This document shows positions 2,848 through 36,346 of a stretch of DNA of 64,000 nucleotides, in pieces. The notes under the pieces were generated by a model, which ran no database searches, had not been told where the DNA came from, and saw nothing but the letters and a program-made list of their open reading frames with translations. Position 1 is the stretch's first letter; each line of letters starts with the position of its first letter. The translations under genes and the position numbers were made by a program. Source of the DNA: Candidatus Forterrea multitransposorum CG_2015-17_Forterrea_25_41 (GTDB lineage Archaea; Iainarchaeota; Iainarchaeia; Iainarchaeales; CSSED10-239); assembly GCA_009392915.1 (NCBI GenBank), contig CP045477.1, forward strand, positions 256,001 through 320,000, written 5' to 3'.

Positions 2848-5800
2848 ATGTCATTTAAAGATGCTTGGCAAAATTTTCTAACAAAGATAGACAACAGAAT
2901 ACCAATTAAAAAGATAACAGGCCCACTTGATAAAAAAAATCCCTTAACTTCTTTTTTTATTTTTCTTTTAATAATTTTAGTTGTTTTATACTTAATCTTT
3001 GGATCAAGTATAACACTAAATAATCAAAAACTAACTGAAGTTACAATAAGACTTGCAGATTCAGATAATAATATTTTAGATAATTTTGATTTTAAGATTA
3101 GAAATATATCTGATGGAATAACAAATAGTTATGTTACAAACTCATCAGGTTCTTTAACTTTAGAACTAGATTTAAATAAAAAATATTTATTAATTATTGA
3201 TTCTCCTAATTATGAACTTTTAGAAGAAGAAATTAATTTATCTTTAGATTCTTTAAATTTTATAGTTACTGTTTTAGATACTCCAATTAATTATTTAAAA
3301 ACAGTTTACTTTGAAGATGCATTAACTAATAGCTTAATTGAAGATTCTTTAAATGTTACAATTAGATGTGATAATGGAGAAATAATTACTCCAAATACTA
3401 TTGATACTCAATCTGGAAGTGTAGAAATTAATGTTCCTTTAGAATGTGAAAATATTTATGCATCTGTAAGAGGAGATAGGTATATTGAAGAAAATCTAGA
3501 GATGCCTATTACAGAAAGTACTTTCAAGCTTGAATCTATAACTGAAATATTAGAGAGTGGAAGAGTTTCTATTTCAGTATTTTCTGGAGAAGATATTATT
3601 CAAGATTCAATAACTATTAAAATATTTTCAGTTGATGATTCAATAACTCCAATTAATACTACACAAACAACAAATGGAATTGGTTTTTTTAATTCAATAC
3701 CAGTTGGTGAATATATTGTTAAAGCAAGTGATGTTTCAAATAGATATCTTCAAAAACAAGAACAAGTTACAATAATTAAAAACTCACTTTCTGAAATTAC
3801 ATTTGATTTAATAGATACAGATACAGACTCTCCTATAATAATTGATCCTGATACAAATCAAGAAATTGTTATAAGAGAAGTTACTGTTTTTGTAAAAGAT
3901 AAGGATTCAGGAGAAATTATAGATTCTTCTTTTGATCCTAGTGTTACTTTACTTTTAGATGGTAATGAAAATATTGAACAAAGAAACCTTAATGAAGGTT
4001 TTATTTTTAATATTTCAGAGGATAAATCATATTCTCTTAAAGCAACAGCAGAAGGTTATATTCCTGGAGAAATTATTCCAATAATTTCTGGTAAAAATAC
4101 ATATATTTTTAATTTAGAAAAAATAACAATAAGTAATGTTTCAAACCTTAATATTACTGTTCAAGATGAAGACTTAAAACCAATTGTTGGTTTAAAATCT
4201 TGGATATATGATAAAGATGGACAATATATAGATCCTAGATTTGATTTTTCAACATCTGATGAAAATGGAAATATTGTTTTTGAAAATATTCCTGATCTTA
4301 ATTTTACAATAAAAGTTAAAAATAGTTTTATTGAAGAGACTTCTTCAATGTATCATAATTCTCCACCAGAAGATACTAACATAACATTACCTGTAGAGAT
4401 TGGTACTGGTACAGTTAATTTAACTGTTAAAAATAAATTAAATGATATTGTTTCAAATGCACAAGTTACTTTTTATTCTGAAAGTTTAGAAGTTTTAGGT
4501 AGTTCTTTTGCATCTTCAAATGGAACTTTAGAAAATGATCTTAAAGCTGATAAAAGAATTTTTATAAAAATAGAAGCTGATGGTTATCTTCCTTACTTTA
4601 CAGAGCTTTTTAGAATTTATAAAAATAAAACAGTTACAAAAGAAATTATTCTTGAAAGAGAAAATTTATCAGATGATGTTTCTGTTGAGTTTTTAGGACT
4701 TTATAATTCTTTAGATACTGAAGTTGAATCTTTAAAAAACAATGAAGTATTTTATTTTAAGTTTAAAGCAATCATGCCTGTTTCAAGTCAACATTTTAAT
4801 TTTGTATTTAGAGCAGGTTCTTTTACTTCAGTAACAGAAGATATTGTTTTTATAATGCCACAAAATACTTCTTTAGGTATTCCTGTTTATTATGAAAATG
4901 AGCCATTTAATGAATCAGGGAATTATTTAGAATCTAAGTTAGTTGATATTGAATTCTTAGGATATCCTGCTTCAGTTCATGAAATTACAATTCCTATAAG
5001 AATTAAAAATGCAGCTATTAATGAAAGAGTTTCTTTCTTTTATGATTCTTCAATAAATAATATTGACTTTATGTCAAATAATTTTAATCAATTACAATAT
5101 TTTATAGAAGCTACAAGTCTTTGTGGAGAAGATTTTTGTTTTTCAGGACAATATGTTGATGTTTCTCAAGACTTAAGATATGATATTTCTTCAAATAATT
5201 TAATTTCAACAAATATTCATTCAGATTATATTTTAGAATATCAAATTACAAATTCTTCTTCAAATAGTTTTGAAGATGTAAGACTTTCTACAAGAAATTT
5301 AAATAATGATGATAATCCAGTAGCTATGATTAACATTAATAGTTATTCAATTTCTGGAGAAGCAACTTCTGTTGGTCAAACAATTGAAGGAGAAAATAAT
5401 TTTAATATTCCTTTTACTGGTGATGAAATTAATTTAGAAAAAATTAATCCTTTTTCAAGTATTAATTATACTTTAAATGTAACTCCTTTAAATCTTGGAC
5501 AATCTAAACTTACAAATAGAATTATTTCTCTTCAAGAAGAAATCTATTCTCTTCCTATAAACTTTTCAGTTTCAGAACTTGAAACTATGGAAATTGATTA
5601 TGAACCTAAAAATATTGTTCCTGGACTTCCTTTTGATTTATTAGTAACTGTAAAAGATACTCAAGGAGAATATTTAGAAGGAGTAAATATTAATATTTTA
5701 CAAAAAGTTAGAAATGAGTATATTACTGTTTCAACAGGAAAAACAACTGATCCTCAAGGAAATGTAATAATAACTTTACCATCTTTAAGACCAGGAGAGA

Positions 5801-8800
5801 CTTTTGAAATACAAGCTATAAAGTCAAAATATTTTTCTCAGAATGTTTCTTTTACAATCGGAACTGATATTTTAGATGTTTATTCTCAAGAGCAAATATT
5901 ATCTTCTGAAAGTCCACTTGAAGTATTTATTCATAAAACAAATATTAATGGTGAAACTTATTCTTTAACTTTAAAAAACAAAACAAACTATGCTTTAAAA
6001 ATTAATCAATTTAATACTGAAGATTTTTCTTTTAATAAATCTTATTTACTTAATTTAGAGCAAACTGTTAATTATCTTAATAATCAAATAACTTCTCAAG
6101 CAGAAGGTTTTGTAATTCCTGCAAATGAATCTAAAGAAATTGTAATTAAGTTTGCCCCTTCAGATTCTGCAAGAACTCATCCTGTTTCAGAAGATATTTT
6201 AGGTGCAATTACAGGAAATTATTCTTTAAATAATTATGATTATCGTTTTACAATTCCTGTTAAAGCAAAATTTTCTGTTGGAAGTGGTGTTTTATTTGAT
6301 GATTGTTTAGTTGTAACTCAAAGTCCAGGAGAATGGAATACTGTTGTTTCTACAAGTACTCAAACAACTTCTTTTACAATAAAGAATACTTGTCTTTCAA
6401 AAGAAGGAGAAGTCCCAATACCTATTAAAAATGTACAAGCAAAGATATCTTCTCAAGCAGATAGATATGGTGTTTATTTCTTAAACCTTATAGGCCCATC
6501 TTCTTCAAATCAAATACAGTTGTCTGAAAATTACTATAGAGTTGTAATTGATCAAATGGCTCCTGAAGAAGAATATAGAGTTGATTTAACATTTAATACT
6601 AATGGTACAAGATTTGCAGATGTTAAAACAAATATACATCTTAATGCTCAAGTAGAAACTGAAGATGGTTTATCTTTTGTAAATAAAGAACCTAAAGATA
6701 TTTTCTTAAAAACAAATATTTCAATAATGAATCTTAATGATTGTTTTTCATATATTGATCAAAATGGAAAAGTAATTAATTCAGGTGGTCTTTATACTTT
6801 AGAAGGTATTGAAGAAAATGAATTAACTATTAGAAACAATTGTCAAGGAAAAGCTACTTTTAAAATGAATCTTTGTGATGCTTATGATTTAGGTTGTAAT
6901 GATTTAATTATTACAAATACAGATGAAGAAAATAATATTTTAAGATTTTCACTTAACGATTCTGAAAAAACAGTATATATTAAAAAAGATTCAACAAAAG
7001 CACCTGGTGCTTATATTCTTAATAACAGAGTCTCTGTTATAAATAATTTTGAAAGAGAACTTGCATCTTCTTTTGCTCTTTTAAAAATAAATGCAAAAGA
7101 TCCTAATGGTTTATGGATGGAAGATCCTTTTATAGAGATTAATGAAGATAAAGTTTCTGAGATTAAAAGATTATATAATAATAATTTAGAAAAGACTCCT
7201 TGGGATTATGCAAGTTATTATCAAGGAGAAGAAGGTTTTGGAAAATTTATAACAAATATTTATTATACAGGAAATACTTGGAAAAAATCTTTTAATCAAC
7301 ATTGGAGTAGATGTATAGCTGGAGATGATACTTGTTTATTTAACGGGGATAATTCTTTACTTTCAATGAGATTTTTACCAGAAAATCAATTAAGTAATGT
7401 TGGTGCAGAAGGATTAAGTGCAGGTGGTGCAATTGGGATAGGAATTGGTACTGCTGCAATTGTTTCATTAGTTTTAATTATGGCAAAAGTTGCTGTATTA
7501 GGAAGTCTTTTAGGACCTGTCGGTTGGATAGTTGCTGGACTTTCAATTGTTGTTGCATCAATAGCACCATCTTTCTTTTCAGATTATGATGTAGATGTGC
7601 AACCAAGGTTTTTGGATGTTTCTGAAAATAATACTATTGATAATTTAGTTGCTTTAAAAGAAATATCTGTAGATGATTTAAGTGATCAAAAAGAATTAAT
7701 TAATGTATTTGATATTACTGGTGCAAGATATTTTAAATATTTTAATAATGTTATTTTTGCACATGGAAAACTTGCTTCTAAAAAAGAAATTAAAAGTGTA
7801 CTTCCAAAATGTAATGGTATAAATAATTTAGTGCCTGTTGATCAATTTTTAAAAGTATATAATAAACCTCCATTTTGTGATGAAATAACTATAGAAGAAA
7901 CTGAAGATTCTTATATTTATAAAACAAGTTGTAATGGACAAAAATTAAATAGACTTGAATTAAATTTATTCTATAGTGCTTATTCAATATGTAAAAGTGA
8001 TGAAACATATTGGCCAGAACAAGCAGGTATAAAACCTTTACAGTTTAATTTAACTGATGAAATATATAATTTATTAGATAATGATTCTAAAAAATATTAT
8101 TTTAAAAAATATGAATTTAATCCAACTTTAGATGATTCAAATAGCACACAAGATTTAGCTTTTGTAGATTCAGATAGTGTAGGAAATTATAGATTTGGTT
8201 TCTTTTTAACAAAACCTGAAGAAACACCAAATTATGATCTTTCATTACAAGAATGTGTAACTGATACTGGAAGAACTGGAAAAACAGGAGAAGGTGCAGT
8301 TCCAAATATTTCTCTAAATTGGAATTGGGCTGAAACTGATTGTGCACAAACATATTGTGATGCAACTCAATTAACTCAAGATGTTTTAGATAGAATTAAT
8401 GATGCTGAAAAATTAATTTCATCAAATGTTGTTCAATGTCCTATAAGTAATCAAGAACTTTATGACCAAGCATTAAATGGTTCTTATAAAGTAACTGCAG
8501 AACCATCTGATGTTATTAATGAAATACCTGTTGGAAAAGTAGGTATTAATTCTGTAAAATTAGATTCTCAAAATAATAAATTAGCAATAAAAGTAGTTTT
8601 AGAAAACAGATCTGATACACCATCTTCAGGAACTATTGTTATTAGTCTTGATGATAAACAATTAGAATCTATAAAATACAGAGATGTAGCTTCAGGAGAA
8701 TATATTGAAGAAAATATAGATTATCCTGGATCTTATTCAAAAAGTATAACTGTTCCTTCTGGTATTGATAATACTAATGAAATAATTTTTGTTTATAAAG

Positions 8801-10248
8801 AAGGAATTTATGGTGAAGACTTACCTTTAACTATTGATTATTTAGCAACAAATTCACATAGTAATATGTTTGCTTCAAGTGTTGATTTATCAAGTTATCA
8901 AGCAGAAGAAATCAATGAGTGTCAAGTTCCAGCAACAACTGCAAGATTTGATGGAACAAGTTATTTAGATATGTGGCTTAATAAAGAAATGTATCCTGAT
9001 AATGTTGTAGGTTCTGGTTGGTCTCAAACTGATATTACAAAACTTAAAGAACTTTTAGAGTTTGATGCATACTTAATAACAGATAATTATAATAGTAATT
9101 TTAAAAATGACTTTGATATGGCCTTCGGTGGTCTTGCTTCAAAAGAAGATGGAGCTGGAGCTGGAAATTATGCTATAATGTCTTCTCCAACTGTGTTTTC
9201 AAATGGTTATCTTTCTAAATTATTTAAAAACAATTTAATATTTACAAAAGAATATTCAAGTGAAGAAAATGTAAATATTAATGTTCCAGGAAAATATAAA
9301 ATTAAAATTGATTTATTATTTGAAAATGGTTCTTGGAATTTTTATGAAGGTGATGATCTAGATGTAAATGCATTTGTAACTTTTAGATTTATTTCTTCTC
9401 CAGAAACAGATAGTGTTTTCTATAGAATGCCATTTAATGGATTTGTTGGAAAAACAACTTCTGGATATGATAGACAAGGTTATGGTGTTTCTTACTTAGG
9501 AGATTCTATAAGAGTTGATAATGAAAATGTAATTACAGAAGAAGATTATGGTTCAAATTCATTAAGAACAATAACTGTTACAAAATCAAATGATCTTTCA
9601 AGAATTAATTCAAATATTGAAACAAGAGGTAATCTATTAAGTATTAAATATAATCAAACAGACAATGTAGATTTAATATTTACTCCAAGCACACCAATTC
9701 CTTTACTTATGAGTATTGATAAGAGTAATAATAGCCCTCTTAATGTGATTTATAGACTTAAAGATAAGAGTGGTAATGCTATTAGTTCAACTTCTTTATT
9801 AAGATGGACAGGTGTTGGTTCTGGTTGTGACTTTTCTGGTAATTCTATATATAATATGACTTATTATGATAGATATGCTGGAGATGAAGGTGCAGTTTCT
9901 GCATATGTAGTTGATTGGCCACAAGTCTTAAGAACAGGAAAAATATATTTAAGAACTGTTTTCTATAGTCCTGAAAGAGAGTCTTATTCTTTAGAGAATA
10001 GATCTGATCAAGGTGTTATGGTTAAGTTTTCAAAGAATGGAACTAATTATTCTTCTTCAGTTTCTTTAGGTGAAGATGATTTAACAGGCATTAAATCTAT
10101 TTCAGATGTATTTAATTTAATTAAAGATAATAAAGTATGTGTTGTAAATTCATATGATGGAAAAACTTCTGATTTCTTTTATAATCCTTCAGAAATTTTT
10201 ACAGAGAAGTTTACAAAACAACCTTCTGATTCTTTAGAATGTAGTTAA
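2848..10248 (+). CDS. Giant (2466 aa) membrane-anchored surface protein: N-terminal TM anchor, tandem transthyretin/CarboxypepD_reg-like beta-sandwich repeats, internal Gly/Ala-rich hydrophobic hairpin, conserved C-terminal module of unknown function
   Basis: Long uninterrupted ORF with a GAGGG RBS 8 nt upstream and only 15 nt after the previous stop. TM segment LTSFFIFLLIILVVLYLIFG lies at nt 2944-3003. Repeated ~75-aa units have the pattern ..V.V.D..G..I......tD.nGn..f..ip.g.y.i.....Y. A second hydrophobic block lies at nt ~7402-7585. Many N-x-S/T sequons. Confidence 0.85.
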   Translation: MSFKDAWQNFLTKIDNRIPIKKITGPLDKKNPLTSFFIFLLIILVVLYLIFGSSITLNNQKLTEVTIRLADSDNNILDNFDFKIRNISDGITNSYVTNSSGSLTLELDLNKKYLLIIDSPNYELLEEEINLSLDSLNFIVTVLDTPINYLKTVYFEDALTNSLIEDSLNVTIRCDNGEIITPNTIDTQSGSVEINVPLECENIYASVRGDRYIEENLEMPITESTFKLESITEILESGRVSISVFSGEDIIQDSITIKIFSVDDSITPINTTQTTNGIGFFNSIPVGEYIVKASDVSNRYLQKQEQVTIIKNSLSEITFDLIDTDTDSPIIIDPDTNQEIVIREVTVFVKDKDSGEIIDSSFDPSVTLLLDGNENIEQRNLNEGFIFNISEDKSYSLKATAEGYIPGEIIPIISGKNTYIFNLEKITISNVSNLNITVQDEDLKPIVGLKSWIYDKDGQYIDPRFDFSTSDENGNIVFENIPDLNFTIKVKNSFIEETSSMYHNSPPEDTNITLPVEIGTGTVNLTVKNKLNDIVSNAQVTFYSESLEVLGSSFASSNGTLENDLKADKRIFIKIEADGYLPYFTELFRIYKNKTVTKEIILERENLSDDVSVEFLGLYNSLDTEVESLKNNEVFYFKFKAIMPVSSQHFNFVFRAGSFTSVTEDIVFIMPQNTSLGIPVYYENEPFNESGNYLESKLVDIEFLGYPASVHEITIPIRIKNAAINERVSFFYDSSINNIDFMSNNFNQLQYFIEATSLCGEDFCFSGQYVDVSQDLRYDISSNNLISTNIHSDYILEYQITNSSSNSFEDVRLSTRNLNNDDNPVAMININSYSISGEATSVGQTIEGENNFNIPFTGDEINLEKINPFSSINYTLNVTPLNLGQSKLTNRIISLQEEIYSLPINFSVSELETMEIDYEPKNIVPGLPFDLLVTVKDTQGEYLEGVNINILQKVRNEYITVSTGKTTDPQGNVIITLPSLRPGETFEIQAIKSKYFSQNVSFTIGTDILDVYSQEQILSSESPLEVFIHKTNINGETYSLTLKNKTNYALKINQFNTEDFSFNKSYLLNLEQTVNYLNNQITSQAEGFVIPANESKEIVIKFAPSDSARTHPVSEDILGAITGNYSLNNYDYRFTIPVKAKFSVGSGVLFDDCLVVTQSPGEWNTVVSTSTQTTSFTIKNTCLSKEGEVPIPIKNVQAKISSQADRYGVYFLNLIGPSSSNQIQLSENYYRVVIDQMAPEEEYRVDLTFNTNGTRFADVKTNIHLNAQVETEDGLSFVNKEPKDIFLKTNISIMNLNDCFSYIDQNGKVINSGGLYTLEGIEENELTIRNNCQGKATFKMNLCDAYDLGCNDLIITNTDEENNILRFSLNDSEKTVYIKKDSTKAPGAYILNNRVSVINNFERELASSFALLKINAKDPNGLWMEDPFIEINEDKVSEIKRLYNNNLEKTPWDYASYYQGEEGFGKFITNIYYTGNTWKKSFNQHWSRCIAGDDTCLFNGDNSLLSMRFLPENQLSNVGAEGLSAGGAIGIGIGTAAIVSLVLIMAKVAVLGSLLGPVGWIVAGLSIVVASIAPSFFSDYDVDVQPRFLDVSENNTIDNLVALKEISVDDLSDQKELINVFDITGARYFKYFNNVIFAHGKLASKKEIKSVLPKCNGINNLVPVDQFLKVYNKPPFCDEITIEETEDSYIYKTSCNGQKLNRLELNLFYSAYSICKSDETYWPEQAGIKPLQFNLTDEIYNLLDNDSKKYYFKKYEFNPTLDDSNSTQDLAFVDSDSVGNYRFGFFLTKPEETPNYDLSLQECVTDTGRTGKTGEGAVPNISLNWNWAETDCAQTYCDATQLTQDVLDRINDAEKLISSNVVQCPISNQELYDQALNGSYKVTAEPSDVINEIPVGKVGINSVKLDSQNNKLAIKVVLENRSDTPSSGTIVISLDDKQLESIKYRDVASGEYIEENIDYPGSYSKSITVPSGIDNTNEIIFVYKEGIYGEDLPLTIDYLATNSHSNMFASSVDLSSYQAEEINECQVPATTARFDGTSYLDMWLNKEMYPDNVVGSGWSQTDITKLKELLEFDAYLITDNYNSNFKNDFDMAFGGLASKEDGAGAGNYAIMSSPTVFSNGYLSKLFKNNLIFTKEYSSEENVNINVPGKYKIKIDLLFENGSWNFYEGDDLDVNAFVTFRFISSPETDSVFYRMPFNGFVGKTTSGYDRQGYGVSYLGDSIRVDNENVITEEDYGSNSLRTITVTKSNDLSRINSNIETRGNLLSIKYNQTDNVDLIFTPSTPIPLLMSIDKSNNSPLNVIYRLKDKSGNAISSTSLLRWTGVGSGCDFSGNSIYNMTYYDRYAGDEGAVSAYVVDWPQVLRTGKIYLRTVFYSPERESYSLENRSDQGVMVKFSKNGTNYSSSVSLGEDDLTGIKSISDVFNLIKDNKVCVVNSYDGKTSDFFYNPSEIFTEKFTKQPSDSLECS

Positions 10249-10321
10249 AAGTAATATATATAAATATATTGCTTAACTATATTTTATAGGTTTAATATAT
10301 ATATATTAGGTTAGTATAATT

Positions 10322-10684
10322 ATGAGAAGATACATTTATTTATTTTTAATCGTTTTCTTAGTTTTTCCATTTATTTCTGCACTTAGTTATGATAATGAAA
10401 TCTATGTAAACCCTTTTGTTTTTGGTGTAATTAGAGGGGATGATGGGGAAGTTATTTCAAATATTTCTGATGATGAAATAATAGATCCTGAAATGCAAGT
10501 TTCAAGTGCAAATGGGTTTACTAAAAAATCAGATCTTGATTTAACCATAAGAGAGAATCTTTTGATTTTTAAACTTCCTTCTTATCAAAAAACAAATAAT
10601 AATTCTTTAAATAAATATACTTTTATTTATAATACCTTTGATTATCCTTCAAAGAATGTAAATATTTTATTTAAATTAAATTGA
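10322..10684 (+). CDS. Small secreted protein (120 aa), unknown function
   Basis: N-terminal signal-peptide-like sequence MRRYIYLFLIVFLVFPFISA|LS. A TATA-like ttaatatatatatatt lies ~25-30 nt upstream of the ATG with no SD, suggesting a leaderless start. The stop overlaps the start region of the next gene. Confidence 0.55.
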   Translation: MRRYIYLFLIVFLVFPFISALSYDNEIYVNPFVFGVIRGDDGEVISNISDDEIIDPEMQVSSANGFTKKSDLDLTIRENLLIFKLPSYQKTNNNSLNKYTFIYNTFDYPSKNVNILFKLN

Positions 10685-10692
10685 GAAAATAT

Positions 10693-13110
10693 ATGAGATA
10701 TTTAAAAAAAATTATTTTAACAGTAATATTAATTACTTTTATTTTACTAGTTCAATCATATGTGTTTTCAGCAAGTTGTAATTTAACTCCAAATCAAACT
10801 TCTCTTAGAACTCTTTCTTTAGGTTGTAGTGGTGATGCTTGTGATTTTGTTTTAATTAAAAGTGAAGATGTATCTTCTCAATATAATTCTTGTATTGATT
10901 CTTGTGATCCTGATAATTATCCTGAAAATTACAAAACTTGTATGACTGATTGTTATGATTCTTCAATTAATTCTACAACTGATATTTCATTAAACAGTTC
11001 TTTAAGTTTTTCAAAATCTTCTGAATGCTCTGATAAAGAAATAAATGTTTCTTTAGCAGCAGATATTAATTTTGAAATGTTAAATGAAACAACTTCTCTT
11101 TCAATTTCAGGTATTGATTCTTTAAATACTAATGGAAAAGATATTATAATTTTTGTAAACAATAATGATAAACTTGGAGATGCAACTTTTAGGTTTGATT
11201 TTAGTGATTTAATAATTTCTGATACTTCTAAAATAATTATGACAACAAAAGAAAGAACTTCAATTACAGATTCTATTAATGGTGGGTGGGATGATTGGAA
11301 AAGAGATGGTATTAAACTTTATTTTAATAATTTAGAAATATTAGAAAATGCATCACTTGATTTAAATATGTATATTCCTAAAAATATTTTTAATGTAATT
11401 GATGAAATAGATATGCCTAGAACTTCACTTGCAGGTGGTGAATTAACTTTTGATGGAAACTTAATAGTTAATAATGGTAATTTAAATATTTATCTAAAAG
11501 CACAAGATAGTCAAGATGGTAGAAATTATATAGATTCTGGAAATTGTTTTGATGATCCAGCTTCACAAGGTGGAACTGTTAAAGAGGCAGGGCACATATT
11601 TTTTAACTTAAATTATTTAGAGAATAATGGTTTACTTTTTTCTAAAATGTTATCTGGAAATGGTGGTATTGGAGGTAATGGATCAAAAGCTCAGGATGGA
11701 TGTCGTGGAGATCCTCCAGGTCATGGTGGTAGAGGGGGAAATGCAGGAGATATTTTTTTATATATTAATAATATAGATAATACTAGTAATATTGATTTTA
11801 ATTTAATTGCAGGAAATGCTGGTCCTGGTGGAGATACAGGTTTTGATGGTGGAAATTCTCGTGAAAATTTTGCTATTGGAGGTTCTGGTGGTAATGGAGG
11901 AAATATTTATTTTTGTAAACCAATTTGGAATTCTGGCTTTAGTTGTTTGATAAATAATTATAATTCATTAATAAATAAAGGTAATTTTAATTTAGTTGCA
12001 AATACTGGTTTTGGAAATAATGGTGGAAATAAGAATAATCATCCTGATGAAGGTAGAGCAGGAGATGGAGGAGATGGTGGTTCTTATTTATCAAGTTTAA
12101 CGTTTGATTTTATAAGAAACTCTGGAAATTTAAATATTGCTCTTGAAACAGGTTATGGTGGTTTTAAAGGAACTACTGATGGTGGTGAAGATGGTGTTGG
12201 TGGAAGAACTCCTAATTTTTTTATTAATTTCTTAGAAAATTCTTCTGAAAATTTAAATATATTTTTAAACAGTAAACATGAAATTGGTAATCTTGAATCA
12301 GATGTTATTATTGATAAATTACAAAATGGTAGTTATCTACCAAGTATGATATATACTGTTTTTACTGATTGGACTTTTACACCTAGTGAAGAGTGTGCAA
12401 TTAGTTGTCAATCTAAATTTGATTCTTGTTATCATTTGCCTTCAGCTTGTAATAGATTTTTAGATATGTGTTTATATACTTGTGATAAAACTACAGAAGA
12501 TCTTGAAACTGTTACACAAAATAGAAAAATAAAAATTAATGATGCATGTTATGTTAAACAACCATCAAGTGCTTTAGATTATATGACTGGATTTATATAT
12601 GTTAATTCTGCAAATAAAGATGTTTTTGAAAATCTTCTTCCAGAAAATGTTTCTTCTAATCTTACTAATAACTCAGAATGTGTAATCTGTGATTATTATG
12701 ATTTTGAAAATTTAAATGAAATATTTCCAACAGGTTCTGGAAATAAATTCTTTAAAAACTATACTTTATATTCTACAGTTCAAGGAAAAATTAATGCAGG
12801 AGATTTAGAAATACATTATGCTAAAAATGATCTATCTTTTACAAAAATAAATAAGCTTTATAATCCTTTTACAAAAGAAAATAATCTCCCACTTTATTCT
12901 AATAAACAAGATATAACAAGTAGTCAAGAACCTAATTCTCTAGGTTTGTATGAATATAATATAGATGCAAGTAATCTTGAATGGTATTATGATAAAGAAA
13001 TGGACTTATCAGAAAAAGATTTATATTGTTATAATCAAAATTATAGAATTGAAGGAAAAATAGGAACTAAGATTTTTAACTTCCCATTTACTCCATTATT
13101 TAAAAATTAA
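10693..13110 (+). CDS. Secreted or anchored protein (~805 aa) with a central Gly-rich repeat region (beta-solenoid-like) flanked by two Cys-rich segments
   Basis: The ORF track starts at TTG 10681; ATG 10693 is the more likely start. N-terminal hydrophobic segment ILTVILITFILLVQSYVFSA. About five repeats follow the pattern GNLNI.L..G.GG..G (GNLNIYLKA, SNIDFNLIAGNAGPGGDTG, GNFNLVANTGFGNNGGN, GNLNIALETGYGGFKG, ENLNIFLNS). Cx3C-type Cys clusters lie at nt 10777-10953 and 12394-12483. Confidence 0.75.
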   Translation: MRYLKKIILTVILITFILLVQSYVFSASCNLTPNQTSLRTLSLGCSGDACDFVLIKSEDVSSQYNSCIDSCDPDNYPENYKTCMTDCYDSSINSTTDISLNSSLSFSKSSECSDKEINVSLAADINFEMLNETTSLSISGIDSLNTNGKDIIIFVNNNDKLGDATFRFDFSDLIISDTSKIIMTTKERTSITDSINGGWDDWKRDGIKLYFNNLEILENASLDLNMYIPKNIFNVIDEIDMPRTSLAGGELTFDGNLIVNNGNLNIYLKAQDSQDGRNYIDSGNCFDDPASQGGTVKEAGHIFFNLNYLENNGLLFSKMLSGNGGIGGNGSKAQDGCRGDPPGHGGRGGNAGDIFLYINNIDNTSNIDFNLIAGNAGPGGDTGFDGGNSRENFAIGGSGGNGGNIYFCKPIWNSGFSCLINNYNSLINKGNFNLVANTGFGNNGGNKNNHPDEGRAGDGGDGGSYLSSLTFDFIRNSGNLNIALETGYGGFKGTTDGGEDGVGGRTPNFFINFLENSSENLNIFLNSKHEIGNLESDVIIDKLQNGSYLPSMIYTVFTDWTFTPSEECAISCQSKFDSCYHLPSACNRFLDMCLYTCDKTTEDLETVTQNRKIKINDACYVKQPSSALDYMTGFIYVNSANKDVFENLLPENVSSNLTNNSECVICDYYDFENLNEIFPTGSGNKFFKNYTLYSTVQGKINAGDLEIHYAKNDLSFTKINKLYNPFTKENNLPLYSNKQDITSSQEPNSLGLYEYNIDASNLEWYYDKEMDLSEKDLYCYNQNYRIEGKIGTKIFNFPFTPLFKN

Positions 13111-13133: not shown

Positions 13134-16100
13134 ATGTCAATATTTAAAAAATCAAGAGACAAAATAGAAGCAGAAAAGCTATATGCTCTTTTATCAGACA
13201 AAACTACAAACTATACTCTAGAGGATATTAAAGAGACTATTAAAAAACAAGGTTATTCTGATAAAGTTTCTTCAATTGTTGTAAAGATGATTACAGATAA
13301 TAAACTTCCTTTAAAAGATTCAGTTAATAAAACAAAAACAAAAGAAGAAGTCTTAAAAGAATTATCAGCTTCTGTTGATAAAAACTTCTCTAAACAAAAT
13401 CCAAAAGATTCTTCAAAAGATTCAAAAAAAGAAGATAAAAATAATCAAAAAGAAAATACAAAAAAACAAGAAGATATTAAAAAAGAAGATTCTAAAAAAC
13501 AAAAAGAAGATCTTAAAAAAACAAAAGAAACAAATTTAAAAAATATTAATAAAGTTCCTTTCTTTACAAAAGTAAAAACTTTCTTTAAAAGAATATATTT
13601 CTTTTTTGAAGATAATTACTATAAGATGGTTGATGGTGTAAGTAAAGTTATACCTCTAAACAAATTAACAGACAAAATAGATAAAGTTTTCCCAAGTTTC
13701 ATATTATTCTTATTAATCTTAGCTTTATTGATATATTTAATACTTTCAGGAAGTTTATCTTTCTCTAAAACTTGGACAGTTGCTGTAGAGGTTTATGACC
13801 CATCTTCTGTACCCTTAAAAGATGTTTCTGTAACTTTAATGCTTAAAGATGAAAATTTTTCAACTTTAAAAACAGATATTTTTGGTGAAGTTATTTTTAG
13901 TGATTTTAAATCTAGAAAACAAAATATTAATTTAATAGCTTCTAAAGATAATTATGATACAGTTGAACATTCCTTTAAATTAAGTAAAAGTAATTTAAGA
14001 CAAAAGTTATATCTTCCAACAGATGTAAATTCTAAGATTGATCCTTCAGAAGAAGAAGTAAGAGAAATTTCTTTTGTTGAAAATAATACTGTTTTAATAA
14101 CAGATTCTGTATTAACTACAAATTTTTCTTGTACTAATGCAGATGTAGAACCTAATCCTACAAGAAAAGTTATTTCTTCAGGAAAGGTAACAGTTACAAC
14201 TTATTCTGGTTGTGGTGCTTTAAGAGTTTCTGTAACTTCAGATGATTTTTCTTCAATTACAAATCAAGTTATAAATTCTTCAAATAAAGTAAATCTTACA
14301 AGAATTAATCTTGATAGAGGTAATTTAGGTTTCTCTGTTAAAAACATATCTGGAAGTTCAATTCCTGGAACAGAAGTTAAAGTTTATAGTTCTTCAAACA
14401 CTACTTTTCCTCATGATACAACCACAACTGATCTTTATGGTTTAGGTGAGTTTAGTTTAGAACCTAAAAGTTATTTTTTAACTTTCTCAAAAGAAGGTTA
14501 TCTAACAAATCCTTTAAAAGGTCCTTTAACTGTTATTAAAAATGATTCTGTAAACACAGATGTAGTTTTATTTACTTTAGATGATCTTTTAGAATTTGAT
14601 TGTTCTGATGATAAATATTCACAATTTTGTATTGCTGATGAAATTGATTGTTTTAATCCAAACTTAAAACCATTTTTAATAAATAATGCTGATGGTTCTT
14701 GTACAATTGGAAGACCAGGTTATATTTCTGTAACTTTAAAAGATGTTAATTCTGGAGAACCTGTATATGCAGATATAACTTTAGATTCAAAATTAAAAGA
14801 ATCTGATCAAAACTTTTCTCTTGGTGAACATATTGCAAGGGATACTAATTTCTATACTTTTAATGTTATTGATTTCTATAATTATAGAGTAAGAGTTTTA
14901 AATACAGAAGAGAGTGGTTATCTTCAACCAGATCCAGTCACTGTAAACGGTATTGATCAAAATATAACAGTTAATTTAGAATATTCTTCTTCCCTTAACT
15001 CAGGAGATATTTCAGTAAATGTTAAGAGTGCAGATATGCCTATCTCAAATGCAAGAGTTTATTTATATAAAGAGTTTGAAGATGATTTTGTTTTAGTAAA
15101 TTCTGATCCATTATTTACAAATCAAAATGGAGATGTTAATTTTTATTCTCAAAGAGCAAATAGAGATTATTATGCTTATGCTTTACATAATGTTTTAGAT
15201 AAACAAGGAACTTCACAAACAGATGATTTAGATGTTAACTCAATACTTGATTTATCAATAGATCTTGAAGATATTCCAAAGATATTAAATCTAAAGGTAA
15301 GTCCAAGTATTTCTTATGATATTAATTTTTATAATTCTTCAGATAATCTTGTAACTGAATATGTAAGAACAGATCTTGAAGATGGAAATTCTCTTTATTA
15401 TTTTACAGGTTCTATAAATAAAGTTTATGCAGTTGTTTCTTCTTCAGGTTATACTACCTATCAAACAGATTATATTACTTTAATACCTGATCAAGAAGTT
15501 TATAAAACAGTTAATCTTTCTACACTTTCTTCTTGTGAAGACTCTAAGTTAGAAATTTTAGGTCTTTATGATGGTTCTGGAGTTTTAGAAATTGATAATA
15601 TTGATTTTGTTGAAAATGATTTAGATAAAGAATACAGATTAAAGTTTAAATATATTTCATGTACAGAAGATGAAGAATACAATCAAGCTACTTTAAGACT
15701 TGGAAGACAAGGTTTAATAGATGATGAATATTTATTCTTTGTTTCAGATCAATTTACTTCTCAAGATATAGATGTTACAAGAGGTTATAAATTTTCACAA
15801 GAACATATACCTGACTTTAATTTTGATCTTTTCAATCTTAATTATTCTCAAGATAGATCTTATGATTATTCTGGTGAAGGTTATAAATGGATTGAAATTG
15901 ATTTTGAAAAATTAAATTCTGATATCTTAGAGTTTTCAACTAACTTTAAGTTCAGAGAAGATTCAATTGTTCCTTTTGAAAACTATGTTTTAAATTATAA
16001 ATCATTTGCAAGTATTTATGATGAACTTTATTCTTTTGATCCTGTTTTAAATGAATCTTGGACAGAGATACCAATCTATCCTAATGGTTATTTTTATGCA

Positions 16101-19100
16101 GAAACAAACAAATATTTAATACCTTTTGAAAATACAGATTATATTTATTCTGTAAAATTAAAAGACTGGAATCAAAATCTTTTAGAAGAATATGCTGGTG
16201 GTTATCCTGTATCTATTAATAATTTTTATAAATATGATCTAAGTTATTTATATTTAAATCAAACAGAAAGAAACGGTAGTGTTTTACAATCTTCTCAATA
16301 TACAAATAATAATTTAGATTATTTAAGTTATGGTTATACTTCATCTTTAGGTAACTCAAGTTCAGGAGATACTCAAAATGCTACAAATAACATGACTTCA
16401 TTTTTAATACTTCCAGATTATAATACTCTTCCAGGTTCAACAGATACTACTATAAATCAAGAAATCTATTATCATATTAATGTTGATGATTATAATTATT
16501 CTTTAGATGATATTAATGCAGAGATTGGTTATTATTTAAATACTTATACTCTTTTAGAGCCAAAAGGTTTTTTTGAAAATACTAATTTTTCAGATTCAAG
16601 TATTATTTCTGATGTTTTAGATGAGTACCCTTTAGTTAATACAAGTATTTATTCTTATTTATCTGATGAAAATTTTATATTTAATATTTCAACTAACTTT
16701 TCAGGAAACAGAATAATTATTGGTGAAAATAATTTAGGTTTTAAAGTTTTAGATAATTATGGTTCTCCAGTTTCAAATGTTTTAATAAAGTATAAAGTTG
16801 ATGGTGATGAGCTTATAACTTTAGGGTCTACAAATGAACAAGGTATGCTTAGTGATCAAAATATTTTTATAAATCTTTCAGATATTGGAAAAAATATTAA
16901 TTTTGTATTTTTGTTTTCTCCAGAGTTTGGTTTCCTTGCAAACACAGTTGTAAGAAACAAAGAAATCTATTCTGGATTTTCAATAGTTCCAGAAGATATT
17001 AATTTATCTGCAAGTTATTATATTTTAAATGATCAAGTTATAATTGATCAAGTTTCTACAAATAATTATAATCTTTTAAAAGAAACAAATTATTCAAGCA
17101 CTTTAGAAGAAATTGATTTTGTTGGAGAATCAAGTTTGTTTAATCTTGATTCTATTAAAAATAAAATGATTGAAGATAATAATCTTGTAAAAGATTTATT
17201 AGAAGGAGAAAATGAAATTATTACAAGTCTTTTCTTAAACAATAATATTTCTCAATCAACAAATCTTTTAGGTTATTATAGAAATGAAATTGATATTAAT
17301 AATTCTTTAACACAATTATTAGATATTAATTCAAATGTTGAAATTATTAATCTAGGTTCAATTAACTATGATTTTAATCTTGAAAAACATTTTATGAAAG
17401 GACTATTAATTGAAAACAATAATGTTTCTCTTGAGCTTATAAAAGAAATAAACGAATTAATTACTTTAGATTTAAATCTTTTATCAGATAACTCTCAAGC
17501 AACATTTGATAGTATTTCTGTAGAGCTTCCTGAATTTTTAGATCTTGAAGAATTTAATGAAGGTTATTCTTCTTTAGTTGGAGAGTCTTTAACTTCTGAT
17601 GGTTTAATAATTCCTCTTAACTTTAAGATTAATAACTCCTATTCAGGTTCTCTTCCAACTCCAAAGGAAGATATTAATTTAACTTTTAATGTTTATCTTG
17701 ATGATAAATTAGTTTCTTTTAATAAAATAATTTCAATAAAAGTATATTCTAAAGATGACATCTTTTTAATAGAGTCTGAAGGAGACTTACAGATCTATTG
17801 TACTGTTGAAAATTGTTCTCAAAAAAAATCTTTTACTTTTAAAAAATTAGTTAATAATTATATATTAAATCTAAATAAAGAAATTGAAATCAATGAGATG
17901 GATTTAATTGAAGTTTCAAATCTTTTAAGTAATATTAATTTTATTGACCTTTCTGAAAAGAACAGAGCTTTATCTTTTAGTGCCCTATATAATTCTGTTA
18001 ACGAAGAAAATAAACAAGGTAATTTTGATTTAATTTTTAATATTAATATTTTAAATGATTCTTTTAATATAGAAATACCTATTGATTATTTAATTATAAA
18101 ATATTTAGAAGAAGAAACCATAAGTGAAATTACTTTTAATTCCTGTATTGGTGTTGGTGGTCAAGAAAGCAGTAGTGATTTATTTATTTTAGGTTATTGT
18201 CAAGATACCCAAGATACTTGTAAAACAGGAGAATCTGCTGTTCCAAAAGTATTTTTTAATTGGGCAGAATCTGACCTTTCAACAGATTATGACGGAAAAA
18301 CCTGGAATAATGTCTGTATTGGTAATAGCCAAGATACAATGTCAAGTAAATATGCTTGTGATTCCTTACAAATGTTAATTTCAATTTTTAATAAAATTGA
18401 TAATGGTGTAGAAGAATCATTCTATATTAAACTTTTAAATGATGGAATTTCTGATGCTCTTTTAAAAGATTTTATAAATTATAATACACTTTACTTAGGT
18501 TATGATAAACCTAGTGAAGAGATCTTTTCAGAAGATGCAGTTGATGATGGTTTATTTAAAATAACAATTAATAATTCTCCAGAAATTAAAATTTTCCAAC
18601 CTGGTATCTATAAAGTTTTAGTATATGGTGATGATTCAGGAAATGCATATATGGGAAGAGAAGAAGATCAAATGATAGATATACGTCTAGAAAAGGTAAG
18701 TGATCTTCCTGCATCAGAGATAAGTGTATTCCACTATATGCCATTTAATGGTAATTTAGGTTTAGATGGTACAAGAGAGGGTTACGGTATTAAAAATCAA
18801 GATAGTGATGTTGCTCAATTAACTCAAGATGTTGATATTAATTATATTGATGTTATAGATGAAATAATTCAACTATCTTTAACTAATAATAATCTAGAAA
18901 CTTCTCACTTAACACAAACATTAAAGTCTGAAGGAAAAATACTTGAATTAAATAAATATGATAGTGTTGTTGAAATGATTTATTCTCCTTCATATCCAGT
19001 ACCAATATATTCTCATGTAGCATGTATTGATAAAGATGATTTTAGTTATAATCTTTATGAAAATAATAATGCTTTAGATAATATTATAGGTGGATCATTT

Positions 19101-19577
19101 ATTGATTGGAATTTTAATAATACCATAAGATCAGATGTTAAAACAACAGTAACAGGAGATGTTACTAGATACGTATTTAACAATAATAATTTAGAAGGTT
19201 CTTTAAACCTTAATTCAATGTTATATCTTCCTGTAAAATTAAATATTGATTCTTTAAAACTTAAAACCACAGAGTTTGCAAATAATAAAAATACAACTTT
19301 ATTTACAAAGAATAATTTTACAGGTGTAAATCAAGCAGATTTAGTTTTCTCTGAAGATGATTATGTTCTTGGAAATGATTTAATAAACCTTAATACTATT
19401 AAAGGTTTATTTAATTTTATAAGTCAAGAAAAAGCATGTATTGAAAAATCTATTGATAACACAACTATTAAATGGATTGATGAAAAAGTTAATTTTACAG
19501 AACAAGAATTACTTGATATAAATAGTAATATTCCTTCTGATTATTCTTGTCTTGAAGGAGAGGTAATCATAGATTAA
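13134..19577 (+). CDS. Giant (2147 aa) type-II-like membrane protein: Lys/Glu-rich cytoplasmic N-terminus, single TM, tandem beta-sandwich repeats, short version of the conserved C-terminal module
   Basis: Long ORF. TM segment FPSFILFLLILALLIYLILSG lies at nt ~13688-13752. CarboxypepD_reg-like units are present (e.g. GFSVKNISGSSIPGTEVKVYSS...TDLYGLGEFSLEPKSYFLTFSKEGY). The C-terminal module from nt 18144 carries CKTGESAVPKVFFNW, YACDSLQ and FHYMPFNGNLGLDGTREGYGI. Confidence 0.85.
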   Translation: MSIFKKSRDKIEAEKLYALLSDKTTNYTLEDIKETIKKQGYSDKVSSIVVKMITDNKLPLKDSVNKTKTKEEVLKELSASVDKNFSKQNPKDSSKDSKKEDKNNQKENTKKQEDIKKEDSKKQKEDLKKTKETNLKNINKVPFFTKVKTFFKRIYFFFEDNYYKMVDGVSKVIPLNKLTDKIDKVFPSFILFLLILALLIYLILSGSLSFSKTWTVAVEVYDPSSVPLKDVSVTLMLKDENFSTLKTDIFGEVIFSDFKSRKQNINLIASKDNYDTVEHSFKLSKSNLRQKLYLPTDVNSKIDPSEEEVREISFVENNTVLITDSVLTTNFSCTNADVEPNPTRKVISSGKVTVTTYSGCGALRVSVTSDDFSSITNQVINSSNKVNLTRINLDRGNLGFSVKNISGSSIPGTEVKVYSSSNTTFPHDTTTTDLYGLGEFSLEPKSYFLTFSKEGYLTNPLKGPLTVIKNDSVNTDVVLFTLDDLLEFDCSDDKYSQFCIADEIDCFNPNLKPFLINNADGSCTIGRPGYISVTLKDVNSGEPVYADITLDSKLKESDQNFSLGEHIARDTNFYTFNVIDFYNYRVRVLNTEESGYLQPDPVTVNGIDQNITVNLEYSSSLNSGDISVNVKSADMPISNARVYLYKEFEDDFVLVNSDPLFTNQNGDVNFYSQRANRDYYAYALHNVLDKQGTSQTDDLDVNSILDLSIDLEDIPKILNLKVSPSISYDINFYNSSDNLVTEYVRTDLEDGNSLYYFTGSINKVYAVVSSSGYTTYQTDYITLIPDQEVYKTVNLSTLSSCEDSKLEILGLYDGSGVLEIDNIDFVENDLDKEYRLKFKYISCTEDEEYNQATLRLGRQGLIDDEYLFFVSDQFTSQDIDVTRGYKFSQEHIPDFNFDLFNLNYSQDRSYDYSGEGYKWIEIDFEKLNSDILEFSTNFKFREDSIVPFENYVLNYKSFASIYDELYSFDPVLNESWTEIPIYPNGYFYAETNKYLIPFENTDYIYSVKLKDWNQNLLEEYAGGYPVSINNFYKYDLSYLYLNQTERNGSVLQSSQYTNNNLDYLSYGYTSSLGNSSSGDTQNATNNMTSFLILPDYNTLPGSTDTTINQEIYYHINVDDYNYSLDDINAEIGYYLNTYTLLEPKGFFENTNFSDSSIISDVLDEYPLVNTSIYSYLSDENFIFNISTNFSGNRIIIGENNLGFKVLDNYGSPVSNVLIKYKVDGDELITLGSTNEQGMLSDQNIFINLSDIGKNINFVFLFSPEFGFLANTVVRNKEIYSGFSIVPEDINLSASYYILNDQVIIDQVSTNNYNLLKETNYSSTLEEIDFVGESSLFNLDSIKNKMIEDNNLVKDLLEGENEIITSLFLNNNISQSTNLLGYYRNEIDINNSLTQLLDINSNVEIINLGSINYDFNLEKHFMKGLLIENNNVSLELIKEINELITLDLNLLSDNSQATFDSISVELPEFLDLEEFNEGYSSLVGESLTSDGLIIPLNFKINNSYSGSLPTPKEDINLTFNVYLDDKLVSFNKIISIKVYSKDDIFLIESEGDLQIYCTVENCSQKKSFTFKKLVNNYILNLNKEIEINEMDLIEVSNLLSNINFIDLSEKNRALSFSALYNSVNEENKQGNFDLIFNINILNDSFNIEIPIDYLIIKYLEEETISEITFNSCIGVGGQESSSDLFILGYCQDTQDTCKTGESAVPKVFFNWAESDLSTDYDGKTWNNVCIGNSQDTMSSKYACDSLQMLISIFNKIDNGVEESFYIKLLNDGISDALLKDFINYNTLYLGYDKPSEEIFSEDAVDDGLFKITINNSPEIKIFQPGIYKVLVYGDDSGNAYMGREEDQMIDIRLEKVSDLPASEISVFHYMPFNGNLGLDGTREGYGIKNQDSDVAQLTQDVDINYIDVIDEIIQLSLTNNNLETSHLTQTLKSEGKILELNKYDSVVEMIYSPSYPVPIYSHVACIDKDDFSYNLYENNNALDNIIGGSFIDWNFNNTIRSDVKTTVTGDVTRYVFNNNNLEGSLNLNSMLYLPVKLNIDSLKLKTTEFANNKNTTLFTKNNFTGVNQADLVFSEDDYVLGNDLINLNTIKGLFNFISQEKACIEKSIDNTTIKWIDEKVNFTEQELLDINSNIPSDYSCLEGEVIID

Positions 19578-19579
19578 AT

Positions 19580-19951
19580 ATGAGTAATATTTTTTTAAAT
19601 TTTTTAAATGATTTTGATTTAATCTTACAGTTATTTTTAATTCTTACAATCATTGCATTTATCAGAAGAAGAGTAACTCACAATACATTAGCTCTTTTTT
19701 TAATAAGTGTAACAGTTATTGCTATGATCTTTTTATTCTGGCCTGTCTTTAAAATTGGATATATTTTCTATATTCTTTTGTCAGTTGGAGTTGCAGGAAT
19801 ATTTGTTGATTTCTTCTTTATTAGTGCTGGTGGTTCTGCAGAAGAGATGATGGGTAAAAAAATGGAGACTCATGGAACTCCTGGAGCAACTGAACATGCT
19901 GCAAGAAATCAATTAGTTAAAAAAATGGGTGGAAGACCTCCTGGAAGATGA
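19580..19951 (+). CDS. Small polytopic membrane protein (123 aa), basic C-terminal tail
   Basis: Starts 2 nt after the giant ORF's stop. About 3 hydrophobic helices are followed by the soluble tail MGKKMETHGTPGATEHAARNQLVKKMGGRPPGR. Confidence 0.6.
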   Translation: MSNIFLNFLNDFDLILQLFLILTIIAFIRRRVTHNTLALFLISVTVIAMIFLFWPVFKIGYIFYILLSVGVAGIFVDFFFISAGGSAEEMMGKKMETHGTPGATEHAARNQLVKKMGGRPPGR

Positions 19952-19958
19952 ATTAAAA

Positions 19959-20306
19959 ATGAATAGTAATAAAGGTTTTTTTGGTGGTATTCCTTTAATT
20001 GCAAAGATATTAGTAGTGTCTGTTATTGCAATTTTGATTGTTCCTGGGGCAATGGCAATTTTTCCTTGGGTTAAGTATGTTATAATGGGTTTAATTGTTT
20101 TTTTTATTTATGAAAACGCAGCACAGGCTTTTGGTGAAAAAAATATTCTTACCTTTATTGTGACTGGTATTTTAGCTTATTTTTTAGTTTATAAATATTT
20201 ATTTCTTACAAGTGCTATAATGATGGCATATTTATTTTTAGGCTTTGGTTTAGTTTCTGTTTTCTTTTGGGGAACTTCTACTCTTTCCAGAAAAGGCAAA
20301 AAATAA
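19959..20306 (+). CDS. Small polytopic membrane protein (~115 aa)
   Basis: The ORF track begins at GTG 19929, overlapping the previous gene. In-frame ATG 19959 lies 7 nt after the previous stop and is preferred. Four hydrophobic segments; ends with the basic tail SRKGKK. Confidence 0.6.
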   Translation: MNSNKGFFGGIPLIAKILVVSVIAILIVPGAMAIFPWVKYVIMGLIVFFIYENAAQAFGEKNILTFIVTGILAYFLVYKYLFLTSAIMMAYLFLGFGLVSVFFWGTSTLSRKGKK

Positions 20307-36340: not shown

Positions 36341-36346
36341 AGACTT

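Follow-up and report, generated by a model that had tools for sequence, protein, structure and literature searches.

What does a strongly Gly-rich protein, predicted to be secreted, do between two giant proteins in an archaeal chromosome? The question is raised by gene D in the 64,000-nucleotide (nt) stretch of Candidatus Forterrea multitransposorum analyzed here (contig CP045477.1, positions 256,001 to 320,000; hereafter the window), which a first-pass annotation had read as coding for a solenoid-like repeat protein, bracketed by two related Cys-rich caps and acting as a structural partner of the giants. We give an even chance to the proposal that the gene D product (D) is an exposed, variable, and recombining recognition or adhesion subunit of a giant-protein envelope complex. 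This proposal draws together a predicted signal peptide, a rigid predicted β-helix, a conserved scaffold framing hypervariable loops, conserved termini, mosaic alleles, and a strict coupling to the giants.

Domain architecture and export

Gene D is an open reading frame (ORF) on the forward strand that is open from 10681, with its start codon ATG at 10693, 8 nt past the stop of the upstream gene and in agreement with the N-termini of all homologs; it ends at 13110 and codes for 805 amino acids (aa). An identical (100%) protein is present in the databases as P0001 (hypothetical protein GW835_02495, NCP79414.1, organism given as archaeon). AlphaFold2 (AF2), hydropathy, and family alignments divide it into the following features:

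10693..13110, + strand: gene D, an 805-aa predicted secreted Gly-rich β-helix protein (ORF list; identical P0001; start shared with homologs)
10693..10773, + strand: predicted signal peptide, aa 1-27, MRYLKK followed by a hydrophobic core and SYVFS/AS (hydropathy; family consensus KK...VFA..C; presumed cleavage)
10774..10872, + strand: small N-terminal β element, aa 28-60, with C29, C45, and C50 (AF2 strands 31-33, 38-46, and 49-56)
10873..10968, + strand: N-terminal twin-Cx3C α-hairpin, aa 61-92 (C67x3C71 ... C83x3C87), a lineage-specific insertion (AF2 helices 62-70 and 80-91)
10969..11418, + strand: Gly-poor N-terminal β-helix coils, aa 93-242, with conserved ISGID, VNN, and E..R motifs (AF2 strand series 98-227)
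11419..12297, + strand: six ~51-aa Gly-rich units, aa 243-535 (hhalign self-matches, unit stacking, and AF2 strand pairs)
12298..12384, + strand: final helix strands, aa 536-564, with the invariant GSYLP motif (S547, P550; AF2 strands 538-543 and 552-564; invariant columns)
12385..12486, + strand: C-terminal Cys hairpin, aa 565-598 (Cx3Cx6C-x6-Cx6Cx3C), a lineage-specific hypervariable insertion (AF2 helices 566-575 and 583-595)
12487..13107, + strand: conserved C-terminal domain, aa 599-805, with C619, C663xxC666 and an acidic residue, C779, a basic position 685, many Tyr, and terminal FNFPFTPLF (family conservation)

The composition stands out in the window: Gly accounts for 24.5% of residues in aa 290-505 and for 5.3% in the window's other ORFs, with 73 of 77 Gly codons being GGT or GGA, and Cys reaches 2.7% against 0.75%. 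The predicted signal peptide is the sole hydrophobic segment in the hydropathy profile, and no C-terminal anchor is present. This extends to archaeosortase-type anchors (PGF-CTERM and PEF-CTERM, comprised of a motif, a transmembrane [TM] helix, and a basic tail), for which D lacks both a C-terminal hydrophobic segment and an NCBIfam match. N-glycosylation sequons are not enriched in D beyond composition. We read D as a Sec-secreted, probably non-enzymatic protein.

The best-conserved part across the family is the C-terminal domain, which displays invariant C619, C663xxC666 followed by an acidic residue (aa 663-667; 12679-12693), and C779, a basic residue at position 685 (K685 in D), and a terminal invariant FNFPFTPLFKN motif. 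Its four conserved Cys residues could form either two disulfides or a four-Cys metal site; the AF2 model is poor around the CxxC motif (predicted local distance difference test score [pLDDT] <50 for aa 664-687). Two further Cys residues are invariant, viz., C29 of the N-terminal β element (36 sequences) and C112 within the Gly-poor coils.

Repeat units and predicted fold

Alignment of the family profile for aa 240-545 against itself with hhalign yielded off-diagonal matches at offsets of 51, 103, and 154 aa (E = 9e-24, 1e-13, and 2e-7, respectively), and stacking of these matches resolves six units across aa 243-535 (11419-12297). The about five Gly-rich units of the first-pass annotation are thus genuine repeats, but number six, of ~51 aa each; the strand-like strings that it had singled out are all present (GNLNIYL at aa 262-268, NIDFNLIAG at 366-374, GNFNLVAN at 430-437, GNLNIALE at 478-485, and ENLNIFLN at 519-526), as are the Gly runs. 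Within each unit, a (GGx)3 run leads into a strand of 10 residues, which a turn with an invariant Asn joins to a strand of seven residues; another (GGx)3 run and then a hypervariable loop complete the unit, which may be written as G-G-x-G-G-x-G-G-x-I-x-F-x-I-N-x-I-x-N-x-G-N-L-N-I-x-L-x-S-G-x-G-G-x-G-G-x-G and a variable loop. In alignments of both 12 and 36 homologs, Gly in the runs is either invariant or conserved at >90%, and one Asn per unit (N260, N311, N363, N428, N476, and N516; invariant or >83% conserved) contributes to an Asn ladder accompanied by conserved I/L positions, i.e., aliphatic stacks. At the DNA level the strict GGx periodicity of the runs corresponds to a period of 9 nt, and matches between units are short and only 67-78% identical, which rules out a recent DNA-level duplication and indicates that the units are old.

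The AF2 model, obtained from an alignment of 12 sequences (mean pLDDT 79.2, predicted template-modeling score 0.73), shows a long series of strands at aa 98-564, to which every Gly-rich unit contributes a pair (250-269, 302-320, 354-372, 422-437, 469-485, and 509-527), followed by a β-rich region at aa 599-805. Its coils stack into parallel β-sheets along a helical axis, as in right-handed parallel β-helices, so that structure prediction and self-alignment (E 9e-24) both return the solenoid signal that the earlier annotation had anticipated. A right-handed β-helix solenoid is hence supported for D at the level of prediction, where it stays given that the known β-helix matches, many lyases among them, share just 4-13% sequence identity with D.

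The Gly runs are modeled at pLDDT ~87-91 and form no β-bridges, with the loops between them at 60-68; they may be extended segments akin to polyglycine-II (PGII). The only matches of the family profile among Protein Data Bank (PDB) sequences are six Obg N-terminal Gly-rich domains (Obg fold, with type-II helices) at non-significant E-values of 0.08-0.9, and one relative, P0047, matches the Pfam GTP1_OBG model weakly (E 4e-4, below the cut-off). The likeness is local, comprising aGxGGxG ... GGxGGxGGxGG followed by a hydrophobic strand; Obg, however, is a cytoplasmic GTPase domain of fixed size lacking a repeat array, whereas D has no GTPase. The Gly-rich snow-flea antifreeze protein was recovered by Foldseek only as a weak match (E 1.5). 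We therefore treat PGII-type segments, as suggested by the GGx periodicity and the Obg matches, as a lead rather than a result; if true, they would make for an unusual β/PGII repeat architecture.

The occurrence of D and N residues in the Gly runs brings up another interpretation of the module, namely a Ca2+-dependent β-roll or an ice-binding-type adhesin region, in which Gly/Asp/Asn turns bind Ca2+ as in RTX proteins and region IV of MpAFP; a Ca2+ β-roll has indeed been proposed for the PE_PGRS-type GGxGG repeats (PMC5054227). We consider this decidedly unlikely, as the runs follow the GGx triplet rather than the RTX nonapeptide GGxGxDxUx, the unit is of ~51 aa rather than 9, 18, or 19 aa, the (GGx)3 runs have no conserved Asp save D385 (78%), and neither HemolysinCabind nor any other Pfam model is matched at E <=1.

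Divergence between strains and mosaic alleles

Gene D belongs to an array of seven genes, A to G, listed below. Between the window and the corresponding locus of a close strain (L015), the synonymous (dS) and nonsynonymous (dN) divergence of the other genes is low, viz., dS 0.065 and dN 0.013 for A, 0.04 and 0.007 for B, 0.075 and 0.025 for E, 0.026 and 0 for F, and 0.09 and 0.01 for G. For D as a whole, dS is 0.30 and dN 0.149, and the excess lies in codons 201-600 (dS 0.43-0.79, dN 0.21-0.35), with codons 1-200 and 601-800 at dS 0.04-0.16 and dN 0.04-0.10. The Gly module and the C-terminal hairpin are thus 5-20 times more diverged than the near-identical neighboring genes, and no other stretch of the operon has diverged or recombined as much between these two loci as the Gly module, a pattern that speaks for an exposed surface involved in recognition and against an internal adaptor.

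A comparison of the window with locus L008 localizes the divergence further (dS, dN, and dN/dS):

N-terminal helix part, aa 93-242: 0.107, 0.076, 0.71
Gly module, aa 243-535: 0.39, 0.20, 0.51
strands of the Gly-rich units: 0.412, 0.145, 0.35
Gly runs: 0.473, 0.135, 0.29
loops between the runs: 0.419, 0.386, 0.92
C-terminal hairpin: 0.64, 0.68, 1.06
C-terminal domain: 0.044, 0.045, 1.04

The Gly-poor coils, at dS ~0.11 or less, vary little from strain to strain. Amino-acid change within the module is concentrated in the loops; the same is seen among six close homologs, in which the variability index (the column-averaged share of sequences that deviate from the most common residue) comes to 0.12 in the Gly runs and 0.32 in the loops. 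In these six, moreover, the nearest-neighbor allele switches from unit to unit: P0003 resembles P0005 across units 1-3 (96-100%), P0006 across units 4-5 (83-93%), and the window in unit 6 (95%), and P0002 tracks the window through unit 5, after which it follows P0004 and P0006, both in unit 6 and in the hairpin. Such switches identify the alleles as recombinant mosaics with breakpoints between repeat units, and the coincidence of high dS with high dN indicates the import of diverged cassettes, as opposed to proven positive selection. A tblastn search found no silent donor cassettes for D within the window. The notion that the Gly runs act as DNA-level recombination hotspots was not supported, the dS of the runs being as high as that of the strands.

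Giant B presents a comparable picture relative to another close strain (L016), with a diverged block at codons ~1401-2000 (dS 0.6-1.05, dN 0.2-0.9) in a gene whose remainder has dS <=0.13. The block looks like a second variable cassette of the operon; it holds a Gly/Ala-rich hydrophobic helix pair (aa 1525-1578; nt ~7420-7581) in the middle of the presumed extracellular part, which could be a re-entrant or membrane-inserting element.

Phyletic distribution and the Cys hairpins

A word-indexed search recovered 12 relatives of D, and an exhaustive search of 1.84 billion representatives with a hidden Markov model gave 71 matches, 45 of them at <1e-10; about 35 are full-length proteins (670-890 aa) of the same architecture. 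Every named record in the family is from Iainarchaeota/Diapherotrites (metagenome-assembled genomes labeled Candidatus Iainarchaeum, Candidatus Diapherotrites, or 'ainarchaeum'), which assigns D to the DPANN phylum Iainarchaeota. Searches of D, C, and A against Pfam, NCBIfam, and PHROGs returned nothing usable, a phmmer search of D against PDB sequences gave only a chance match to gp41 (E 1.3), and no relatives of D were found in the viral contigs of IMG/VR. A viral origin of D was ruled out by this last result together with the fixed position of the locus beside housekeeping genes.

Across 36 sequences, the only conserved sites of the helix are the Gly residues within the runs, a single Asn in each unit, and aliphatic strand positions; no position of aa 93-564 is acidic or basic in >=80% of them, which argues against a catalytic groove. 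This bears on the alternative that D is a β-helix carbohydrate-active enzyme (a lyase, glycosidase, or depolymerase, as in phage tailspikes) that opens a host envelope or extracellular polymeric substances. Lyases do figure among its β-helix matches, but at the identity of 4-13% noted above, and no enzyme family of Pfam, NCBIfam, or PHROGs is matched; with the conserved Gly, Asn, and aliphatic positions being structural and no charged residue conserved among the 36 members, an enzymatic role appears quite unlikely.

The Gly module also occurs by itself in bacteria. The bacterial protein P0080 shares the module alone with D (hhalign against the family alignment, E 1.2e-12, aa 245-446), and P0054, P0064, P0069, and P0080 are built from units of the same pattern (strand - SGxGGxGG - loop - GGxGGxGG - strand), there combined with Listeria-Bacteroides (internalin-like) repeats, BspA-type leucine-rich repeats, or other domains rather than those of D. 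In the one bacterial context examined, that of P0080 (L014), the neighbors are unrelated and include no giants. The module, which no Pfam or NCBIfam model covers, is therefore separable, and it is full-length D that is tied to the giants; a partnership with the giants, as surmised earlier for the protein, holds for full-length D in all seven contexts described below and not for the module in this bacterial context. Separately, the Gly-poor coils (profile ~94-236) are matched 13 and 26 times by the giant bacterial proteins P0050 (6643 aa) and P0056 (4728 aa), respectively; this region is thus a repeat type in its own right, employed in very large proteins.

The two Cx3C clusters that the first-pass annotation had taken for related caps are both present, as C67x3C71...C83x3C87 and C568x3C572x6C579x6C586x6C593x3C597, and each is modeled as a helix-turn-helix (H62-70/H80-91 and H566-575/H583-595). 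Their resemblance is that of a twin-Cx3C motif, homology between the clusters not being established, and they sit at the ends of the whole β-helix (aa 93-564) instead of bracketing its Gly-rich part. Nor are their Cys residues family-wide: 23 of the 36 family representatives have neither hairpin, 12 have an insertion at the N-terminal site (10 with twin Cx3C; P0009 with four Cx3C motifs), and eight have one at the C-terminal site. The N-terminal hairpin alone is found in P0008, P0009, P0014, and P0017 and the C-terminal one alone in P0015, indicating independent presence and absence. The C-terminal hairpin of close strains is either 17-47% identical or, inside one allele group, 100% identical. 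The hairpins are accordingly accessory, lineage-specific insertions, which may cap the helix in this lineage although the fold has no need of them.

Twin Cx3C helical hairpins are typical of the small Tim proteins and CHCH domain proteins. The likeness of D to these is one of pattern only, namely two predicted antiparallel helices each with a Cx3C motif, with room for two (N-terminal) or three (C-terminal) inter-helix disulfides; the hairpins of D differ in being predicted extracellular insertions of an archaeal surface protein, with zero to four motifs and hypervariable sequence.

A conserved seven-gene neighborhood

The remaining genes of the array are as follows:

1..2832, + strand: gene A, cut by the start of the window, with a C-terminal MPFNG module (blastp against B, 6.6e-39; against E, 2.7e-9)
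2848..10248, + strand: gene B, a 2466-aa giant with an N-terminal TM anchor, immunoglobulin (Ig)-like domains (CarboxypepD_reg/Big_1), a hydrophobic pair at aa 1525-1578, and an MPFNG module
10322..10684, + strand: gene C, 120 aa with a signal peptide (120-499 aa at this position in other lineages)
13134..19577, + strand: gene E, a 2147-aa giant that begins 23 nt past the end of D and has both a TM anchor (aa ~185-210) and an MPFNG module
19580..20306, + strand: genes F (19580-19951) and G (19929-20306), small multi-pass membrane proteins closing the array (hydropathy)

D thus lies between giants, as the first-pass annotation had it (2848-10248 and 13134-19577). All seven genes are on one strand, with spacings ranging from an overlap (23 nt between F and G) to gaps of 73 nt. 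The frame of A continues without interruption to the edge of the window (base 1), so the start listed for it at 322 is not the true one; its homologs have 964-1092 aa. A, B, and E share a ~400-aa C-terminal module with a Y/R-MPF(N/D)G motif (window 1-2832, 8900-10248, and 18200-19577), all database relatives of which are hypothetical proteins of Diapherotrites archaea without a Pfam domain; the module is lineage-restricted. B and E combine N-terminal TM anchors with Ig-like domains, and D shares no domain with the giants.

We examined synteny in seven lineages, and in all seven independent contexts full-length D lies inside the same giant array, down to ~25% identity and including relatives at 25-28%. 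Wherever enough flanking DNA is present, the order recurs, namely around P0007 (46% identity), P0008 (42%), P0011 (33%), P0012 (27%), and P0079 (25%), as well as in the close strains L015 and L016 and in a distant locus from activated sludge (L012). B keeps its position in all long loci, E is downstream of D in every locus, and the array adjoins the genes for HU and histidyl-tRNA synthetase (HisRS) in every genome, a chromosomal, core-like setting. In L012 a second full-length D paralog replaces A (the two being at 303-2327 and 9995-12136) and a 499-aa Cys-containing secreted protein stands in for the 120-aa C, giving the order D'-giant-(499 aa)-D-giant-F-G with two pairs of D and a giant. F and G persist even there (18530-19320; E 9e-22 and 9e-27; 27% and 43% identity) and could be assembly or export factors for the giants. 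This recurrence upholds the partnership with the giants that had been suggested for D; a fiber, cap, or adaptor is too passive a description, given the divergence and recombination of its Gly module. Neither the array nor its proteins were found described for Iainarchaeota/Diapherotrites in the DPANN literature and family libraries searched.

The strict coupling to membrane-anchored giants suggests a retained rather than a released protein. It thereby weighs against D being a secreted toxin or pore-former directed at a host, with the β-helix as a carrier comparable to VacA p55 and the C-terminal domain as effector; one distant relative of the Gly module does carry a Thiol_cytolysin domain, but no toxin domain was detected in D, and we regard this role as extremely unlikely.

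A different alternative takes D for a structural, S-layer-like block of the envelope without a specific ligand, whose variable cassette would reflect the evasion of viruses or predators exploiting D as a receptor. Several observations are in keeping with it: in every genome the array occupies a fixed, core-like place beside HU and HisRS, the giants have the build characteristic of envelope proteins (Ig-like domains in a TM-anchored chain), the cassette has a dN/dS of ~1 or less with no direct sign of positive selection, and giant B likewise carries a divergent block. However, the divergence of D sits in loops framed by a scaffold, and its unit-by-unit allele shuffling is the pattern of a recognition module such as that of the phage adhesin gp38, making the structural alternative unlikely in our assessment. 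The two readings differ mainly in who does the recognizing.

Some further features of these genomes were observed in passing. In two related genomes, serpin genes occur right downstream of the array and HU (L006, 20036-22289; L015, 20252-21598), at a position occupied in the window by tRNA genes and HisRS. In L016 (12392-18743), the strain with P0002, the ORF call for giant E is divided in two (139 and 1949 aa), which may reflect a frameshift, an assembly error, or a phase-variable break. The window, at ~25% G+C, also codes for an ATP-dependent DNA ligase, an archaeal-type prolyl-tRNA synthetase, and an RNA polymerase subunit B split in two ORFs of 484 and 605 aa (34886-38164), genes that mark it as archaeal.

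Comparison with known adhesins and a functional model

The closest functional precedent for D is gp38, the long-tail-fiber adhesin of the T-even/S16 phages. Its conserved Gly-rich motifs make up a PGII core and act as recombination hotspots for modular shuffling, with receptor binding being the task of its hypervariable segments (PMC12032242); gp38 also holds a β-helix domain (PMC12032242). Like it, D has conserved termini flanking alternating Gly-rich motifs and hypervariable loops and comes in mosaic alleles. It differs in showing no homology detectable in Pfam, PHROGs, and PDB sequence searches, in being about three times larger, in having its Gly runs interleaved with β-strands inside the solenoid instead of gathered in a separate sandwich, and in being a cellular gene on the chromosome beside HU and HisRS, without viral relatives.

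With the right-handed parallel β-helix surface proteins of bacteria and phages (the two-partner-secretion adhesins EtpA/HMW1, the autotransporter passengers UpaB/TibA/Vag8, phage tailspikes, and region IV of MpAFP), D shares a predicted extracellular location, an Asn ladder with aliphatic stacks, and the make-up of a rod-like carrier of binding surfaces. In contrast to these it is archaeal, has only a Sec signal, is at most 13% identical (<=13%), and builds its coils from ~51-aa units of which ~30 residues are (GGx)n runs and loops without β-bridges; it also lacks a detected two-partner secretion (TPS) domain, β-barrel translocator, trimerization domain, or tail-attachment domain. Specifically, no Pfam or NCBIfam match at E <=1 was obtained for a TPS domain or TpsB partner of the EtpA/HMW1/FHA type, the neighbors being the giants and small TM proteins in an archaeon without an outer membrane, and D has no autotransporter-type C-terminal β-barrel.

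We propose that D might function as follows, as a recognition or adhesion subunit. After cleavage of the signal peptide, its conserved N-terminal coils and Cys/Tyr-rich C-terminal β-sandwich domain would dock it on the membrane-anchored giants. The six Gly-rich coils would provide a rigid scaffold, in which the (GGx)3 runs frame hypervariable loops along one flank of the helix, and these loops would contact the ligand. Recombination between alleles, with breakpoints between units, would then exchange the loops and the putatively disulfide-stapled C-terminal hairpin, thereby giving rise to new specificity or antigenicity. A more far-reaching version, which we consider unlikely, posits a hybrid solenoid of a kind not described before, with two β-strands and two PGII segments in each ~51-aa coil making up a rigid lattice for the display of the hypervariable loops, with the A-G array being a host-recognition or attachment apparatus of the Iainarchaeota and D a cellular analog of a phage receptor-binding adhesin, whose allele shuffling would switch the host range.

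The repeats, the predicted β-helix fold, the conserved synteny, the localized divergence, and the mosaic alleles are direct observations; several considerations nevertheless weigh against reading them as recognition or adhesion. The docking of D to the giants is drawn from gene order only, and the synteny from seven lineages rather than all of the ~35 family clusters. The alignment behind the AF2 model is shallow (12 sequences), and the Obg matches, not being significant (E 0.08-0.9), may reflect composition alone. The dN/dS of the cassette is ~1 or below everywhere, with recombination evident but positive selection unproven, and hypervariable envelope proteins can also reflect the evasion of viruses rather than the recognition of ligands. 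Finally, the organism is known from metagenomes only.

Implications

The class of fold and the principle of variable adhesins both have precedents. What is new is a protein family covered by no library, its ~51-aa unit of Gly runs and strands, its setting inside a conserved giant-protein operon of a DPANN archaeon, and its cassette-like recombination. The analysis defines a Gly-rich solenoid unit common to D and to uncharacterized bacterial surface proteins, and the locus as a conserved seven-gene envelope array, in which strain-level divergence and recombination, as judged from the window and L015, fall mainly on the repeat loops of D. At the molecular level, D offers one concrete candidate for the means by which DPANN archaea recognize and hold on to other cells.

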